27,638 bases of DNA from Candidatus Bathyarchaeia archaeon (GTDB taxonomy: Archaea > Thermoproteota > Bathyarchaeia > TCS64). A program made the position numbers and the translations under genes. Shown one piece after another: positions 2,269 through 12,819 of the stretch. The stretch is taken from the NCBI GenBank assembly GCA_050014495.1, contig JBEKDF010000038.1, forward strand, positions 1 through 27,638, in the 5' to 3' direction. Every line of letters starts with the position of its first letter. The stretch's first letter is position 1. Under the pieces are notes generated by a model. The model was not told the origin of the DNA and made no database searches. It saw nothing but the letters and a program-made list of their open reading frames with translations.

Positions 2269-3240
2269 CTATACATTCCTCGCCGTGAAGAAGGCTACGA
2301 GGTCCAGACCTTTCGGGAGCTTTTTCTCTTTTATATAGTAAGTGAGTGTGGCGAGGGAGGCACAAGATGCGGGGAGAACCAAGAGGCCCTCCTCGCGCGC
2401 TAGGATGTCCGAGTACCGGATCATCTCACCATCAGTTACATGAGCTGCCCAGCCTCCACTCGCCCATAGAGCGTCGAGAGCCTCTTGCCCGTCGAGACTC
2501 ATCCAACTAACGAGAGGCTCGTTGATGGTTGTTTCATTGATCCCTTCGGGCCTTAGGTTCTCGATACTTCTCTTCCCAGCGAGGAAACTGGAGACTATCG
2601 GGTTCCCCCCGCTCGTGCTCGCGGCGATGATCATAGTGTTTTTCTTTGTCTTACCGCTCTTTCGGAGACTCTGAAGGCCGAAGTTAATCCCAGCGAGGGT
2701 TGTGCCATTACTTGTTGGAACAGCCACAACATCGGGGGCTCGTCCCATCCTCTCAACTATTTCGTAGGCTATTGTTGCGTATGCCTCAAAAGATGCGGCT
2801 CTGTTCTCTGATGTGCCGGGGTTAGCATTGTACCATCCTCTCTTACCCGCTTCGATCCCGGAATACTCAACAACTTCCTCGTAGGTCCCTGGAGCGCGAT
2901 GAATCACGCCACCTTGCTTCTCCATCTCCTCTATCCGTGGAGTATGATACTTCTCAGGGATGTAGACGTGTGTCGTGATTCCGAAGATGCGAGAGAGGTG
3001 GACGAAGCTAGCGCCGAAGTTACCACAAGAGGCTATGACGAGTTCTCCGAAGCCTTTTTCCTTCGCAAGCTTGAGGCACGCGTAAGCGGCGCGGTCCTTC
3101 ATCGTCCCAGTTGGGTTCCCTCCCTCAAATTTTATGTAAATGTTGCTATATCCAAGCAACTGTTCGAGATTGCGGGAATGTGTGAATATCGTGTCGCCAA
3201 TGCCGTGTGCGATTAATTCTCCTTGCAACATTGCCGTCAA
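2269..3240 (-). CDS. PLP-dependent enzyme, fold type II (threonine synthase/Trp synthase beta-like), divergent
   Basis: KFEGGNPTGTMKDR (PLP lysine), ASCGNFGAS, VPTSNGTTLAG phosphate-binding loop, LAREEG. TTG start; ATG at 3231 is an alternative. Confidence 0.85.
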   Translation of the reverse strand: MTAMLQGELIAHGIGDTIFTHSRNLEQLLGYSNIYIKFEGGNPTGTMKDRAAYACLKLAKEKGFGELVIASCGNFGASFVHLSRIFGITTHVYIPEKYHTPRIEEMEKQGGVIHRAPGTYEEVVEYSGIEAGKRGWYNANPGTSENRAASFEAYATIAYEIVERMGRAPDVVAVPTSNGTTLAGINFGLQSLRKSGKTKKNTMIIAASTSGGNPIVSSFLAGKRSIENLRPEGINETTINEPLVSWMSLDGQEALDALWASGGWAAHVTDGEMIRYSDILAREEGLLVLPASCASLATLTYYIKEKKLPKGLDLVAFFTARNV

Positions 3241-3328
3241 GTTCTGAGTCTAACCTGATAGTAAGCAATAATAAGTAGGATTAATGATTATCGACTCCGG
3301 ATACAAAGTCCACGCAGGTATGTAAATA

Positions 3329-4687
3329 GTGTCGAGCCTCTCTATAGAAGCGAGACAGATCGAGACGGGTTATGAAATAAATCTCCGCGGTTCGCGGTAT
3401 GTCGTAAAGTACCCCAACGGCTTCTGGAAGAATTATCCCCAGGAGGCGAAGGATGTGCTATTCGACAATCTCGTCTACGCAGAGACCGTCCATCTACCCC
3501 TTACCCTAAGGAAGAGCGAGTTGAGGTACAATACCTCTGCTCCCTTTTTCCAGACCCAGTTCTTCCAGAACCTCCTGATGGACCTGCCGAGCTGTGCAGA
3601 TGTAGACGGAACTAGGACGTCGGAACTGATTAAAGATTTCATGAATCTTAATATCAAGTTCAATGACTATAACGTCAAGTTTCCAACCTATAAGCAGCCA
3701 AGCAGGGACGACAGCAGCGTTGTTGCACTCAGCTTCGGTAAAGACAGCCTACTCACTTGGGCAGTCTGCCGCGAGCTCGGCCTCAACCCACAGGCTGCGT
3801 ACGTCGTTGAGCCCCTCCTCCTATACGAGGAGAAGCACAAAGATGTACTCGCCAAGGAGTTCGAGAGCGAGTTCAAGGTGAAGCTAAACAAGATCATACA
3901 CACAACTGGCCACTTACGCGACGGTATACGCCTCGGCGTTGGTAAAACAGAGATTGGTTGGGGACTTCAGAATACACAATACGCGATGATGTTACTCCCC
4001 ATTGCCAACACCTTCCAGGCGAAGTACATTCTCTTCGGCAATGAGCAAAGCTGCAGCGAGTACTACTACGATAAAGAGGGTTTCATTTGCTACCCAGCCT
4101 ATGACCAGAGCCACAAATGGACGATAAACATCGACATCATAACTCGTCTACTAACTAATGGTGGTGTGCGCACGATGAGCGTCATCGAGCCTCTTAATGA
4201 CATCGCGGTCGTCTACAGCCTGTACAAGAGGTACCCTGAGGTAGCCAAGTACCATATGAGTTGCTTCGTCGAGACCGAAGCGGGTCGAGACACAAGGTGG
4301 TGCATGAGTTGCAGCGTCTGTAGCAAGATGTATCTCTTAATCAAGGCGTGTGGCTTCGATCCCAAGACCGTTGGGCTAACGAAGAACATGCTCACAGAGG
4401 ATTGCAAGGACTACTTCAGCCTCTTCGGTGGAAGTGACGTCAACACCTACGCCCTAACAGGCAGGGGTCGCGACGAGCAACTCTTCGCCTTCTACCTTGC
4501 ATGGAAGAACGGTGACAGAAGCCCACTCACACAAGAGTTCGAGCAGAGGTTCCTCGATGAGGCAAAGGGTAGGGAGGATGAGCTCTACAAGCTCTTCTTC
4601 GGCGTCCACGAGGCGATCACAATGCCCGAGAAGATCAAAAACGAAGCCCTCAGCATCTATAAGGAGGTCCTCACGGACGTCCCCTAA
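3329..4687 (+). CDS. PP-loop (adenine nucleotide alpha-hydrolase-like) protein resembling the MurL peptide epimerase family
   Basis: VVALSFGKDSLLT PP-loop, then GNEQS, EPLNDIAV, HMSC and RWCMSCSVC cysteine cluster, in the motif order I recall for MurL (GKDS...SNExSA...LRPxSEL...SSCN...WCxxCxKC). The family match is from motif recall, not a search. Confidence 0.6.
   Translation: MSSLSIEARQIETGYEINLRGSRYVVKYPNGFWKNYPQEAKDVLFDNLVYAETVHLPLTLRKSELRYNTSAPFFQTQFFQNLLMDLPSCADVDGTRTSELIKDFMNLNIKFNDYNVKFPTYKQPSRDDSSVVALSFGKDSLLTWAVCRELGLNPQAAYVVEPLLLYEEKHKDVLAKEFESEFKVKLNKIIHTTGHLRDGIRLGVGKTEIGWGLQNTQYAMMLLPIANTFQAKYILFGNEQSCSEYYYDKEGFICYPAYDQSHKWTINIDIITRLLTNGGVRTMSVIEPLNDIAVVYSLYKRYPEVAKYHMSCFVETEAGRDTRWCMSCSVCSKMYLLIKACGFDPKTVGLTKNMLTEDCKDYFSLFGGSDVNTYALTGRGRDEQLFAFYLAWKNGDRSPLTQEFEQRFLDEAKGREDELYKLFFGVHEAITMPEKIKNEALSIYKEVLTDVP
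4661..4668 (+). promoter_or_regulatory. Shine-Dalgarno AAGGAGGT inside the 3' end of the PP-loop gene
   Basis: AAGGAGGT at 4661-4668, 8 nt before an ACG (4677) that is in frame with the Ddl-like ORF. Confidence 0.6.
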
Positions 4688-5696
4688 CCAGAAGAAACTG
4701 AGAATCGCTTTTTGTTGTAACACGCGCCAAAATAAGGGTGAGTTTCAGGTCGAGTACGAGCCGGGGCACACAATTGATCTTGTAAAGCACGCAATCGAAA
4801 CCGCTGGGTGGGAGTATTTACAAATAGAGGCGGACGAGACTTGCTTCGAGACACTCAACAGGGAGAGACCTGACCTCGTCCTAAATAGAGCAGAGGGTGT
4901 CAGGGGCGAGAGTAGAGAGAGCCAGATCCCTGCCTTCTGTGAGATGCTCGGCATTCCATACACGGGAGCAGGCATCATGGCGACGGCCATTTGCCTCGAC
5001 AAACCCACTACGAAGAAGGTGCTCGAGTGGCATGGTATCAAGACTGCGCCATTCACTGTGCTCTTTGAGGAGAGCGACCCAGTTGACTCAAAGCTTAGAT
5101 ACCCTCTCATTCTCAAGCCCAGCCACGAGGGCAGCAGCATAGGCATAAACATAGACAACGTCGTTCACGACGAGAAGCAGCTCCGCAGAAAACTCAGTGA
5201 GATGCTGAATGTTTACAAGCAGGGCATCCTAGCCGAGGAGTTCATTGATGGTCGCGAGTTTAGTGTCGGGATAGTAGGCAATTTCATCGGTGAGGAGAAG
5301 CCTCGTGTCCTCCCAATCTTCGAGATGGATTTCAGCAAGTTCGCTCCCGAGCTTGGCACCGTCCTAGGCCAGAAGGCTAAGACAATCTATGACACATCAG
5401 CCAACTATATCTGTCCCACTAAGCTCCCAGAGAAGCTGATGAAGGAGATAGAGGAGACGACACTAAAGGCGGTGAAGGTTCTCCAGTGCTATGACTGGGG
5501 TCGCCTTGACTACAGGTACAATAGTCGTGGCGAGCTCTACTTCCTCGAAATTAATCCGCTACCAGGCATCGACTGCGACGCCTCGATTGACGATTTCAGC
5601 TTCTACCCCTTCATGTGGCTTAGGGGCAGCTGGAGCTTCGACGATATGATCCGTGAGGTAGTGGGCGCAGGTCTTAAGCGATACGGGATCAAATAG
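4677..5696 (+). CDS. D-alanine--D-alanine ligase-like ATP-grasp enzyme (divergent subfamily); probable non-canonical start
   Basis: EMLGIPYTG, CLDKPTTK, YPLILKPSHEGSSIGI, EEFIDGREFSVGI, WGRLDYR, FLEINPLPG. The canonical HGxxGEDG is replaced by AEGVRGESRE. The track start at 4497 adds an S/R-rich stretch overlapping the upstream gene; start placed at ACG 4677 (CTG 4698 alternative). Confidence 0.85.
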   Translation, partial: TSPNQKKLRIAFCCNTRQNKGEFQVEYEPGHTIDLVKHAIETAGWEYLQIEADETCFETLNRERPDLVLNRAEGVRGESRESQIPAFCEMLGIPYTGAGIMATAICLDKPTTKKVLEWHGIKTAPFTVLFEESDPVDSKLRYPLILKPSHEGSSIGINIDNVVHDEKQLRRKLSEMLNVYKQGILAEEFIDGREFSVGIVGNFIGEEKPRVLPIFEMDFSKFAPELGTVLGQKAKTIYDTSANYICPTKLPEKLMKEIEETTLKAVKVLQCYDWGRLDYRYNSRGELYFLEINPLPGIDCDASIDDFSFYPFMWLRGSWSFDDMIREVVGAGLKRYGIK

Positions 5697-5700
5697 ATTC

Positions 5701-6294
5701 ATGATGAGCGAAGAGCCACCTTTTTTCGAGGAAGCATCAAAACTGGTCGAGGATAGGCTAAGTAATCTACTCGGGGAGTCCATCAAAATAAACGTTCACG
5801 TCTCCCTTGACAAAAATCTGATCGAAGAAATAATTAGTATAGAGTCCAGCATGTTCAGGGAAGAGCTTAGATACAGCTTCGAGGAGCTGATGGCTAGAAG
5901 TGAAAAGCCTGGTTTCGTCCTCATCAAGCTTATACGAGGTTGTGAGACTCTTGCCTTCTTCTTCGGGTATGAAGACCCGGATCTCCCAGGTAGTTACTAT
6001 GGGGATACACTCGCGAGCCTCATTGAGGGTAAGGGAGTTGGGAGCAACCTCTTTGCACTCGTCCACATTTACTGCTACGAAAAGGGGTATAGCCACTTCA
6101 CCTGCCACACCGAAGAGGTAGATGAAAAAGGGAGGAAGCTCAGGGACTGGTATATCGCCATGGAGATGAAGCATATTAACACAACCAATGAGTATGGTGA
6201 CCAGATGAGGGTGACCCTATCAAAACCGCACATAAACTGGATGTACCATCGCTATATCCTTGGTGAGAAGCAGTATAGGCGAGTCCCAGATTGA
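5701..6294 (+). CDS. GNAT-fold acetyltransferase-like protein
   Basis: LASLIEGKGVGSNLF resembles the acetyl-CoA-binding motif A (xxGxGxG), followed by a beta-strand (FTCHTE) and WY; starts 4 nt after the ligase stop. Confidence 0.6.
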   Translation: MMSEEPPFFEEASKLVEDRLSNLLGESIKINVHVSLDKNLIEEIISIESSMFREELRYSFEELMARSEKPGFVLIKLIRGCETLAFFFGYEDPDLPGSYYGDTLASLIEGKGVGSNLFALVHIYCYEKGYSHFTCHTEEVDEKGRKLRDWYIAMEMKHINTTNEYGDQMRVTLSKPHINWMYHRYILGEKQYRRVPD

Positions 6295-6349: not shown

Positions 6350-6796
6350 ATGCTATACTTTTCATACGGTTCCTTCCTGGACTCAGAGACACTGATGAGA
6401 CATTGCCCGAGGGCGGTTTACAGTGGGAAAGCCATGCTCCCAAACTGGGAGGTTCAGTTCAACTTCCTCAGCCGAACTTATAATGGAGGTGTTACTGGTA
6501 TCGAGCCCGCAGTGGCTAAGCTAGTCAAAGGGGTACTCTATGAGGTTAGCGACGAGGAGATTCTCCACCTTGATTCGATAGAGGGAGTTCCTGAGGGCAT
6601 CTACTACAGGCAGACAATCTATGTGGTCGATGAGTCGGGTAAGGCGGTGAAAGCGGCAACTTATAGAACCACTAACCCGAAAGGTCCCTTCAATCCAACT
6701 AAGAAGTATGTCGGGCTCATGATTAGTGGAGCAAAGGAACATGGTCTCGACCCCGAATATATTAATGAGTTAGAGTCTATCAAGACCGTCGATTAA
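6350..6796 (+). CDS. Gamma-glutamylcyclotransferase (GGCT/AIG2-like)
   Basis: MLYFSYGS N-terminal motif, VKGVLYEV, LDSIEG (catalytic Glu), YYR, P...Y...GAKEHGL. Start placed at ATG 6350. Confidence 0.88.
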   Translation: MLYFSYGSFLDSETLMRHCPRAVYSGKAMLPNWEVQFNFLSRTYNGGVTGIEPAVAKLVKGVLYEVSDEEILHLDSIEGVPEGIYYRQTIYVVDESGKAVKAATYRTTNPKGPFNPTKKYVGLMISGAKEHGLDPEYINELESIKTVD

Positions 6797-8734: not shown

Positions 8735-9636
8735 CTACCTTGCAGTCAGGTAACCGTTTAGCATCAGATTCAATGTCTGAACAATCGCTACTACGACGAA
8801 GTCCTTCGCTAGCACCTTACCTAGCGCCAGTAATCTATTGACTTCTCCAGAGCCCAGGATCATTCGGCTAAACCAGAGGCGCATAGAGACGAACGCAGTG
8901 AGCCCAAACAGAATAATGTAGAATATAAGAGGTAAACCGAACATTACACCAACGAGAAACATTAAAGGCACCAGGGCATAGCCCAGAGCTATTGTTAATA
9001 GAAGCCCTCGTCCAGGCCCTAGTACTATAGGAATGGTCCTAGCGCCATTTTCGAGGTCGGGGGTATAATCCGCCAAATCCTCCCATAAGCTGTTCACTGC
9101 CGTTGTAGTTCCTATTACTACCACAAGAACCAGAACACGAGTAAATGAAGCGCCAGCGAAGGCAGAAACGATCAGCACCGGAACTGCACCCACGGTAAAG
9201 TTCACTACCGGCTTCCAGAGAGTCTGTCTCAGCCTGAAAGGTGGCACTGAATAGAGCACACCAAAAAAATACCAACAACGACCCAAAAAACTACATAAAA
9301 TGAAGTCGTCAGCGCCCCAAGTAAGGAGGAAAGGACACAAAGCCCCAGAGCCACAGGCAGCCCCAGCTCACCAATCTGTCTCGTAAACTCTGCACAAGAT
9401 TTATGAGATAGGGCATCAAGTTCTTCATCGAAGACGTTGTTTAAGGCATCCACACCACTCCACCCGAGAAACACAATAACACCAAGATAGGAGACCTGAT
9501 TCCACGCTACAGAGTCAAGCATAAGGAAAGCGACTCCGACTGCGATGGCGAAGACCATCACACCCCTCTCTGCGGAGATAAAGTTAGCAAACCCCCGCAA
9601 TTCACGGAGCATATGCACTGATTCTACTCTACTCAT
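8735..9636 (-). pseudogene. UbiA-family prenyltransferase split by a single frameshift at a T7 run (9263-9269)
   Basis: The 5' ORF (9636-9229) has NNVFDEELD. The 3' ORF (9340-8735) has YSVPPFRL and EDLADYTPDLENGARTIP. Adding one T to the run gives GIFFGVLYS and a continuous 300-aa membrane protein. Confidence 0.8.
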
Positions 9637-10865: not shown

Positions 10866-11573
10866 TCAGTGTTCTAGACTTAGAAAGTTAGAAACGAGAA
10901 GATCAGCCAATCGCTTCATATCAGGCTCGCGGGCTTCACAATCGCTTAAGACCTCCTCTCTTGTTTTACCTACAGTGTCGAGCTCTTCGGGGTAGGCTGA
11001 AGCCCATCTACTTGCTTCAATGTGGTTAATCTCAAGGTGAAAAATTATGCCTCTAATATTCTTACATGCGTAGGCCTGGATTGGGCAGGGATCTCCTTGT
11101 GCCAATAGTTTGCCACCGGATGGAACAAGGAACATTTCACTGTGCCAATGGAATACGGGTATCTCACGCGGGAATCCTTTGAATAGTTGGTCGGCTACTC
11201 CATCATCGGTTAGGGTAACCGTGTAAACTCCTACCTCCTTCTTCGGGCTTCTAATGACATTGGCCCCGAGTAACTTTGCGAGTATCTGTCCTCCACAGCA
11301 GACACCAAGCACTGGCTTACCGCTCTTAATTACCTCCGAGAGGTACTTCCACTCCTTTTTGAGGAATTGATGTTTACCGATATCGTTAGCAGAAATGGGT
11401 GTCGGGCCAACGATGAATGAAGAGTAGTTCTCGATCAGAGGAAACTCCTTTCCACTATCCATAGAGTAGGCTTTGATCACATCGACTTTCGAGTGTTCTC
11501 TGACGAACTCCTCGTAGAGTCCGAGGTTCTCCGTAACATCGTTTTGAATTATTAGTACACTGCTCGACTTCAT
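10866..11573 (-). CDS. Class I glutamine amidotransferase-like protein (stand-alone)
   Basis: LGVCCGGQ nucleophile elbow, FHWHSE, FHLE (His-Glu of the triad). Start placed at ATG 11573 (MKSSSVLIIQN). Confidence 0.85.
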   Translation of the reverse strand: MKSSSVLIIQNDVTENLGLYEEFVREHSKVDVIKAYSMDSGKEFPLIENYSSFIVGPTPISANDIGKHQFLKKEWKYLSEVIKSGKPVLGVCCGGQILAKLLGANVIRSPKKEVGVYTVTLTDDGVADQLFKGFPREIPVFHWHSEMFLVPSGGKLLAQGDPCPIQAYACKNIRGIIFHLEINHIEASRWASAYPEELDTVGKTREEVLSDCEAREPDMKRLADLLVSNFLSLEH

Positions 11574-11583
11574 GCATATTGAT

Positions 11584-11603
11584 CGTTTCAAACGTTTAAA
11601 ACG
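11584..11603. promoter_or_regulatory. 20-bp near-palindrome overlapping a TATA-like box in the divergent GATase/alr intergenic region
   Basis: CGTTTCAAACGTTTAAAACG has one mismatched pair against its own reverse complement; minus-strand TTTTAAA (11601-11595) lies 22-28 nt upstream of the GATase ATG. Confidence 0.45.
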
Positions 11604-11652
11604 GGCTCGGGGGAGGGAACCGATATTTAGAAGAAGCACAGGAGTCTCAGGT

Positions 11653-12819
11653 ATGGACCCACGAAATATTAGGCCTGCCTGGGCTGAGGTCAAGCTTGAG
11701 GCCCTTGCTCACAATATTCGAGAGGTCAGACGACTTATTCACAAGGACTCCATGATCCTTGCTGTAGTCAAGGCGGACGCCTATGGTCACGGGGCAGTAA
11801 AATCGTCCAAGATCTTACTCGAGAATGGCGCAGATATGTTTGGTGTAGCTAGACTTAACGAGGCCTTAGAACTTAGGAATGCGGGAATTGATGCACCTAT
11901 CCTTAATCTCGGTTATACACCTGAGGACCAATATGAGAATCTCATCAGAAGGGACATAACCGCGACAATCTATACTCTCAATCAGGCTCTTTCCCTCGAT
12001 AAGACTGCCGCTGAAATTGGTTCCAAAGCAGTTGTTCATATTAAAATCGACTCAGGAATGAACCGCATCGGGTTCCAGCCTAACAATGATACTATTAGGG
12101 CGATTACTAGGATCAGTTCACTACCTAACATAGAACTGGAGGGTATCTTCACACATTTCGCTGTCTCAGACGTAGTTGACAAGACATACACGCATAAGCA
12201 GTTTGAGCTGTTTATGTGGGTTCTAGATGAACTTAAAGCAAGAGGGGTCGAGCCACACATTAGGCACGTTTCAAACAGCGCCGCGATAATAGACCTCCCC
12301 GAGTACTCGCTGGACATGGTCCGACCTGGAATCATGCTCTACGGTTACGAGCCTAGTGAGGAGGTTGATCTTAGTCGAGTGAGTCTTAAACCTGCGATGG
12401 CGCTTAAGGCTAGTATTTCAAATGTCAAAGTCGTACCCGAGGGTATAGGAATCAGCTATGGACTCACTTACAAGACAAAGCGCCCAAGCATCATTGGTAC
12501 AATCCCTATCGGCTACGCTGATGGCTATAGGAGAGCATTATCCAATAGAGGTTGGGTTGACTTCCATGGTGAGGTAGCTCCGATAGTTGGGCGTGTTTGT
12601 ATGGACCAGTGCATGATTGATTTGACAGATGTCGATGGAGCAGAGATTGGTGAGGAGGTCACACTATTTGGAGGTGGATGCGCGCCAAGCGTTGAGGAGA
12701 TGGCCAGAATGCTTGACACTATACCAGACGAAGTTATAAGTGCCATAGCCCGCCGTGTCCCCCGAGTATATCTCAAATCGGGTAAGATAATCGAGACACG
12801 AGACTATTTAGAAGGATAG
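11653..12819 (+). CDS. alr: Alanine racemase, bacterial type (PLP fold III)
   Basis: RPAWAEV, AVVKADAYGHG (PLP Lys), HIKIDSGMNRIG, GIFTHF, SNSAA, VRPGIMLYG, ISYG (catalytic Tyr), GYADG, IVGRVCMDQ, RVPRVY. Start placed at ATG 11653. Confidence 0.96.
   Translation: MDPRNIRPAWAEVKLEALAHNIREVRRLIHKDSMILAVVKADAYGHGAVKSSKILLENGADMFGVARLNEALELRNAGIDAPILNLGYTPEDQYENLIRRDITATIYTLNQALSLDKTAAEIGSKAVVHIKIDSGMNRIGFQPNNDTIRAITRISSLPNIELEGIFTHFAVSDVVDKTYTHKQFELFMWVLDELKARGVEPHIRHVSNSAAIIDLPEYSLDMVRPGIMLYGYEPSEEVDLSRVSLKPAMALKASISNVKVVPEGIGISYGLTYKTKRPSIIGTIPIGYADGYRRALSNRGWVDFHGEVAPIVGRVCMDQCMIDLTDVDGAEIGEEVTLFGGGCAPSVEEMARMLDTIPDEVISAIARRVPRVYLKSGKIIETRDYLEG

Follow-up and report, generated by a model that had tools for sequence, protein, structure and literature searches.

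A conserved four-gene unit in Bathyarchaeia and Asgard archaea that combines a MurL-like PP-loop ATPase with a Ddl-like ligase, an acetyltransferase and a PLP enzyme, and its possible role in D-amino-acid chemistry

The characterised MurL is described as acting on the product of a ligase, where it uses ATP, releases AMP and inverts an L-residue to D in one direction only (PMC8788868). For acidic D-amino acids, an irreversible route of racemisation has been described in which dgcN is the key gene (PMC12363236). In the current analysis we describe a locus of Candidatus Bathyarchaeia archaeon in which a MurL-like PP-loop ATPase is encoded together with a Ddl-like ATP-grasp ligase, a GNAT-fold acetyltransferase and an enzyme dependent on pyridoxal phosphate (PLP). 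The locus lies in a stretch of 27,638 nucleotides (contig JBEKDF010000038.1 of assembly GCA_050014495.1, positions 1 to 27,638 of the forward strand), referred to here as the window. The cluster is a real, conserved and uncharacterised pathway, a variant of the ligate-then-activate kind, and there is a high probability that its four genes serve one small-molecule pathway. As a tentative reading, held at somewhat less than an even chance, they would make a small N-acetylated dipeptide with a D-amino acid, perhaps an osmolyte, by racemisation, ligation, adenylation with epimerisation, and acetylation.

The gene of the PLP enzyme (2269..3240, minus strand) is transcribed divergently from that of the 452-residue ATPase (3329..4687, plus strand), from which it is separated by an intergenic region of 88 nucleotides (3241..3328). 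The ATPase gene is followed on the same strand by the ligase gene (4698..5696, 332 residues) and the acetyltransferase gene (5701..6294), the latter opening with an ATG at 5701 after the ligase stop at 5696. This divergent layout and the spacing of 4 nucleotides agree with an earlier prediction made from the sequence alone (the original prediction), which had described a three-gene operon and regarded it as the biosynthetic core of the cluster. The three genes do stay together in relatives, but the conserved unit has four members and includes the PLP enzyme; the description as a core is apt for these four genes only, since the surrounding genes are mostly limited to the closest relatives. The start of the MurL-like gene is GTG in all 33 sequences aligned over the window region 3241-3331, and an AGGT about 10 nucleotides 5' of it is conserved in at least 85% of the aligned sequences.

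Conservation was counted in the best 80 of 123 genome loci, a sample that leans to close kin. The ligase gene follows the ATPase gene in 71 of the 71 loci with enough flank, and the GNAT gene comes next in 67 of them (64 by script, and L037-L039 by tblastn). A PLP gene is present at 75 of the 80 loci; of the other five, four break off at or close to the edge of a contig and L077 has no PLP gene. Four gene orders have been identified, namely the divergent order of the window, a co-directional order with the PLP gene first, a convergent order, and an order ATPase-PLP-ligase-GNAT (L211, L212). In two genomes (L206, L207) the PLP gene stands between its usual flanking genes and the three-gene block is missing as a whole. 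Co-inheritance is maintained through four gene orders, beside the folds and intact catalytic motifs described below, and the arrangement is far beyond chance, being found again in relatives whose identity is as low as about 43%. Of the 251 genomes of the class, whose kin are not independent, 57 encode the MurL-like gene, 51 the PLP family and 49 both. The unit is present in 47 of the 63 sampled genomes of the window's family. In the Asgard phylum the ATPase is found in 17/151 genomes; the four-gene unit recurs in Bathyarchaeia and in Asgard archaea.

The 452-residue ATPase carries the PP-loop SFGKDS (residues 135-140; 3731..3748, plus strand), the segments HMSC at residue 309 and WCMSCSVC at 324, all as first described, and the last two form an SC...WCxxCxxC cluster (C312, C325, C328, C331; 4253..4321, plus strand). 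The assignment to a MurL-like protein has held. The sole family match is the MurL model NF041275 (E 1.2e-5), at 24 bits and so short of its cut-off of 700, and the ESM Atlas gives MurL clusters at 0.97. By HHalign, the family profile matches seven single actinobacterial MurL-type proteins with P of 95.7-98.2%, a more distant match (L204) having been excluded; most of the seven are encoded beside a gene that we take from its sequence to be murD-like. Over residues 126-357 (P 98.7%) the PP-loop, NE, Q-S and SC/WCxxCxxC motifs are in register with MurL, and the segment GNEQ...YDQSH (4037..4114, plus strand) aligns with SNE...NHQxSK of the murD-linked MurL proteins. In 102 full-length representatives of the family these positions are well kept: G137 in 102, K138 in 100 and S140 in 99 for the PP-loop, N238 in 88, E239 in 92 and Q260 in 96 for the aligned segment, and, for the cluster, three Cys in all 102 and C331 in 101. 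The family comprises 178 clusters at 50% identity with E below 1e-30. A look-up of clusters for 10 representatives gave no informative names, and a plasmid search with the ATPase gave no match.

The predicted structure of the ATPase (pLDDT 94) adds a second relationship. Residues 127-345 of the model match QueC (Z 14.8, root-mean-square deviation 3.0, 189 residues aligned), Cap9 of Cap9-CdnD follows with Z 14.2, and QatC is high in the Foldseek ranking; the best solved-structure matches include QueC, Cap9, ThiI, LarE and NcsA. No MurL entry turned up in the fold-search lists, which is not an exclusion of MurL, and a sequence search of solved structures gave nothing useful. The four-Cys pattern aligns with that of QueC and is likely to be a QueC-like zinc site, the role of the QueC cluster presumably being to hold zinc. 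The original prediction had set a best match to QueC or a tRNA thiolase, or a triad not conserved elsewhere, against its own reading; QueC is indeed the best solved-structure match, but the sequence is nearer to MurL and the triad is conserved. The core of the protein is of the QueC type, and by sequence its nearer relative is MurL. It forms a family of its own within the QueC/MurL group and belongs neither to QueC nor to MurL. In a tree of 46 core domains three groups come apart, namely the window family, a subfamily linked to DUF1611 and creatininase, and MurL; QueC is placed weakly beside the window family, and the families are unrooted.

That the protein is simply a QueC or a tRNA thiolase in an incidental neighbourhood is very improbable, in spite of the structural matches to QueC, ThiI, LarE and NcsA and a weak phmmer match to TtuA (E 0.08, PP-loop only). 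No QueC model of Pfam or NCBIfam matches it, a canonical QueC (E 3e-60) is encoded elsewhere in the genome and aligns with the family profile at P=5.8%, the protein is twice the length of QueC, and the gene linkage survives four gene orders.

The QueC-type core also lends support to an amidating role, which is the main alternative to epimerisation. In this explanation the ligase and GNAT make an N-acetyl-dipeptide, the PP-loop enzyme adenylates and amidates its carboxyl, and the PLP enzyme possibly frees ammonia as a dehydratase, the product being similar to the osmolyte N-acetylglutaminylglutamine amide (NAGGN). The Ngg/AsnO route is likewise described as combining GNAT or peptide-forming parts with amidating ones (PMC8070244), the PLP enzyme is the most constant partner, and some bacterial loci have MscS and GT4 genes in their vicinity. 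We regard it as unlikely, as family scans found no asparagine-synthase or glutaminase domain in the 452-residue protein, a GATase neighbour occurs in only 9/80 loci, the sequence motifs of the ATPase align with MurL and not with QueC, and the epimerase-family and DgcN-like partners described below would be left without a clear role. In the dipeptide reading that we prefer, the 452-residue enzyme would likewise adenylate a carboxylate, and from its likeness to MurL the chance that it epimerises is about even.

The PLP enzyme passes the NCBIfam model PRK06381 (331.8 bits, cut-off 266), which is labelled threonine synthase by NCBI. It falls below the ThrC model TIGR00260 (72.8 vs 167.1 bits), the ThrC motif NSxNPxR is replaced, and a canonical ThrC is encoded elsewhere in the genome; the enzyme is a ThrC-like protein of fold-type II and not a canonical ThrC. 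Its Schiff-base lysine is K48, and Cys72 in the segment xxCGN is Cys in 129/129 homologues (50 archaeal-type and 79 bacterial-type). In human serine racemase, S84 is described as the re-face base, two residues before N86 (PMC6424897). The Cys of the PLP enzyme similarly lies two residues before a conserved Asn, the position being inferred from the numbering. The enzyme may be a racemase, a possibility that we rate a little below even. A plasmid search with the PLP enzyme gave one match (L093:9887-13501), on a Chondrinema plasmid. It presents a third gene context, in which a PRK06381-type PLP gene is followed by ppk2, a desuccinylase-family gene and a 2-oxoglutarate-Fe(II) oxygenase gene, with no MurL-like gene.

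The second gene of the triad was correctly recognised as Ddl-like. The ATP-grasp catalytic and ATP-binding motifs are intact, and KPSHEGSS, GRLD and LEIN align with those of solved Ddl; the score for the family model TIGR01205 is 154 bits, below its cut-off of 246. The first-substrate motif LHG...GEDG of Ddl is changed to NRAEG...RESRE and the omega-loop YxAKY to GQxAKT; R10 and R64 are invariant, and the substrates are possibly acidic for that reason.

The overlap that was first proposed between the ATPase and ligase genes is doubtful, but the genes are tightly coupled from either of the starts considered below. The program-called ligase frame opens at TTG 4497, which gives an overlap of 191 nucleotides and an extension of 67 residues; in relatives the frame can be closed by a stop as little as 5-15 codons upstream, and this long form was rejected because the extension lacks conservation. 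The N-terminus that is conserved (MRIA...) maps to CTG 4698, 10 nucleotides past the ATPase stop, and this CTG is probably the start. The codon at this position in the 12 closest loci is TTG in 5, CTG in 5 and ATG in 2, and never another Leu codon. An alternative is the in-frame ACG 4677, with an overlap of 11 nucleotides. ATG, ACG or ATC stands at this overlapping position in close loci (window 4677-4700), and farther out in the clade it is common to find an ATG that lies four to eight codons upstream and is homologous to ACG 4677. In the close clade (L001-L039, L043, L045, L076, L079) 16/42 loci are without any in-frame ATG, GTG or TTG start for the ligase. The ligase frame is +1 relative to the ATPase stop in 42/42, often at CCN-TAR, and three loci end in Ile/Leu-stop. 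CTGA overlaps number 15/159 in this genome vs 11/223 and 9/209 in controls, a modest support for CTG starts. We consider it probable that weak start codons account for the ligase start, with the ligase probably coupled to the upstream gene in this way, and improbable that +1 frameshifting does. Nothing supported a MurL-Ddl fusion, or a programmed +1 frameshift giving one: no close fusion was found among the best 120 of 484 long Ddl homologues (32-41% identity, about 670-780 residues), nor any among the best 150 representatives, and the single 803-residue case (L210) is an assembly artefact that spans an N gap.

The label of the third gene as a GNAT has been borne out. No Pfam or NCBIfam model matched the window protein, and the evidence comes from its model, which has a GNAT fold with RimI as the top Foldseek match (E 5e-8), and from its orthologue in L087, which passes PF00583. 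The motif EGKGVG occupies the position of what we take to be the acetyl-CoA loop. Two solitary GNAT paralogues are encoded in this genome. The RimI match, together with Cap9-CdnD and QatC among the top fold matches of the ATPase, could be read as modification of a protein or other macromolecule, in which ligase and QueC-fold enzyme would work together as a protein-tagging pair, with the GNAT as a RimI-like protein acetyltransferase; Cap9 and QatC are presumed here to tag proteins. This explanation appears quite improbable, since no conserved target gene adjoins the unit, the ligase is of the Ddl and not the RimK type, and a PLP enzyme and an epimerase as partners point to free amino acids.

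A related association has also been identified. Other Bathyarchaeia carry PLP, DUF1611, MurL-like and RimI-like GNAT genes, and in bacteria the same PLP family is found next to a different MurL-like subfamily, where the partners are DgcN/DgcA-like proteins and creatininase. The PLP family is present in 10/251 genomes of the phylum of a Spirochaetales record. Six of nine loci retrieved from that phylum encode the PLP enzyme, a DUF1611-MurL-like fusion, creatininase and an enolase-family protein, and the remaining loci include one with the PLP enzyme and DUF1611 only and one that is truncated. Among bacterial-type metagenome loci (the best 80 of 325, many of them short) DUF1611 occurs in 60, a MurL-like domain, mostly creatininase-fused, in 53 and an enolase-family protein in 30. 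DUF1611, sometimes fused to the MurL-like domain, is DgcN-like with 156 bits against a cut-off of 480; it was not found in this genome, which is 96% complete. The most stable pairing, and the core common to both domains of life, is that of the PLP enzyme with the MurL-like ATPase. DUF1611, creatininase and an enolase-family epimerase can take the place of the ligase/GNAT set, and both accessory sets are drawn from families known for D-amino-acid chemistry. Several of the DUF1611-type loci (L107, L110, L082, L083) are flanked by GT4 glycosyltransferases and by polyamine-type genes that we take from their sequences to encode deoxyhypusine-synthase-like proteins, arginine decarboxylase and agmatinase.

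The bacterial variant with its DgcN-like, enolase-family epimerase and creatininase domains also suggests salvage, in which environmental D-amino acids or D-peptides would be turned to L by acylation, ATP-driven inversion and hydrolysis in the manner of DgcN/DgcA. The neighbours in the window are in accordance with this, being a gamma-glutamylcyclotransferase-like (GGCT) gene (6350..6796, plus strand, ATG at 6350; PF06094/PF13772), an amidohydrolase, an enolase-family protein, an alanine racemase and an aldehyde oxidoreductase, and the genome holds three alanine-racemase-like (Alr-like) genes (window 11572-12819, C23:30110-31303 and C13:25748-26965), of which the window copy passes TIGR00492. 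Two ATP-consuming enzymes would, however, be costly for catabolism, and the Ddl-type loci have no conserved hydrolase or transporter: catabolic neighbours are found in at most 13/80, and we consider salvage improbable. Per 80 loci, GGCT is a neighbour in 13, amidohydrolase in 12, an enolase-family protein in 11, GATase in 9 and Alr in 6, almost all in the closest relatives, and the GGCT gene is regarded as accessory.

The chemistry, the substrates and the order of steps in the dipeptide pathway are inferred from sequence and modelled on MurD2/MurL (PMC8788868, PMC5808125). A D-amino acid would come from the PLP enzyme, acting as a two-base racemase with Lys and Cys as bases. Two amino acids would be linked by the Ddl-like ligase, the MurL-like enzyme would activate the C-terminal carboxyl by adenylation and invert that residue, and the GNAT would acetylate the free amine. 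The product could serve as an osmolyte or a protease-resistant store. The alternative partners, DUF1611/DgcN-like proteins and the enolase-family epimerase, also point to stereochemistry. A predicted complex of the MurL-like protein and the PLP enzyme scored 0.01, which weighs neither for nor against.

Several observations weigh against the dipeptide pathway. The kinship to MurL is remote (16-22% identity, with MurL on a branch 3.2 long), the core-domain tree gives no support for MurL as sister of the window family, and the best solved-structure matches are QueC and Cap9, whose chemistry we take to be amide or nitrile formation and protein modification. The Cys of the PLP enzyme is not diagnostic of a racemase, because Ser/Thr stands at its position in other fold-type II proteins of the genome, ThrC included. 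A racemase and an epimerase would be partly redundant in one pathway. The GNAT is absent in 4/71 loci (L018, L021, L035, L040), the two genomes mentioned above retain the PLP gene although the triad is missing, and an ATPase paralogue of 36% identity stands alone in this genome (C3:84674-86062, L081). Such a solitary paralogue is common in this genus, and adjoins the operon in L029 (L029/L092).

Taken together in its fullest form, the proposal is that archaea (Bathyarchaeia and Asgard) produce a dedicated D-amino-acid dipeptide, for which they use a new type of PLP racemase with Lys and Cys as bases, together with a repurposed Ddl and an epimerase of the MurL family that acts outside peptidoglycan, that PRK06381 is a misannotated racemase family, and that the PLP enzyme and MurL-like ATPase form a cross-domain chirality module with interchangeable acylating partners. 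That all of this holds at once is rather unlikely. If the unit does invert a peptide residue, the MurL family would have a use beyond peptidoglycan, and archaea would have a source of D-amino-acid metabolites; Bathyarchaeia are described as being among the predominant archaea of anoxic sediments (PMC9534799). A function would then be at hand for three unannotated or misannotated families, namely the MurL-like ATPase, PRK06381 and this Ddl-like clade, and the route would be without described precedent in organisms lacking bacterial cell walls. Since all four enzymes are soluble, the unit is testable in vitro.

The window further encodes a UbiA-family prenyltransferase (8735-9636, minus strand) that is split by a frameshift and is a single open frame in L001 and L002, and, at the contig end (26343-27563), an open reading frame of 406 residues that we take to be an IS701-type transposase.

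A description of the cluster was not found in the literature searched, which lacks most subscription journals and may miss newer papers on MurL structure and mechanism. New here are the invariant Cys of the PLP enzyme, the fourth gene order, the loss of the triad as a block and the weak start of the ligase gene. D-Ala-D-Ala ligase shares its ATP-grasp motifs with the present ligase, in which the first-substrate motif and omega-loop are altered. QueC, Cap9 and QatC have in common with the 452-residue protein the core fold over residues 127-345, the PP-loop and the four-Cys pattern; compared with QueC, the protein has about 125 extra residues before the core and about 105 after it, and does not keep the PFRN and Y-x-DCR segments, which presumably have a substrate role in QueC. 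The link to the DgcN/DgcA D-glutamate route (NF041892, NF042940) is that loci with the same PLP family and a MurL-like gene can carry DUF1611/DgcN-like and enolase-family genes in place of the ligase set, whereas no DUF1611 was found in this genome. The Ngg/AsnO route to NAGGN is described as encoding acetylation, a non-ribosomal peptide bond and a carboxyl-activating enzyme together (PMC8070244), as is the case here, but AsnO is an asparagine-synthase homologue, a match that the 452-residue protein lacks, and in the present unit the ligase and GNAT are separate proteins, with a PLP enzyme in addition. In this genome, which is 96% complete, no MurC-F ligase was found, and its two Mur_ligase_M hits are, from their motif, taken to be FolC. 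The unit is not peptidoglycan chemistry as known, because these FolC-like genes are the only Mur-domain genes found in the genome; in place of an adjacent murD2 and a Mur pathway supplying UDP-MurNAc-Ala-Glu, the neighbour of the ATPase is Ddl-like. As in MurD2/MurL, the ligase gene comes directly after that of a PP-loop protein of about 450 residues, and the motifs GKDS, [G/S]NE, Q-S, SC and WCxxCxxC are common to MurL and the 452-residue protein; the ligase of the MurL system is MurD, whereas here it is of the Ddl type and is accompanied by an additional PLP enzyme and a GNAT.

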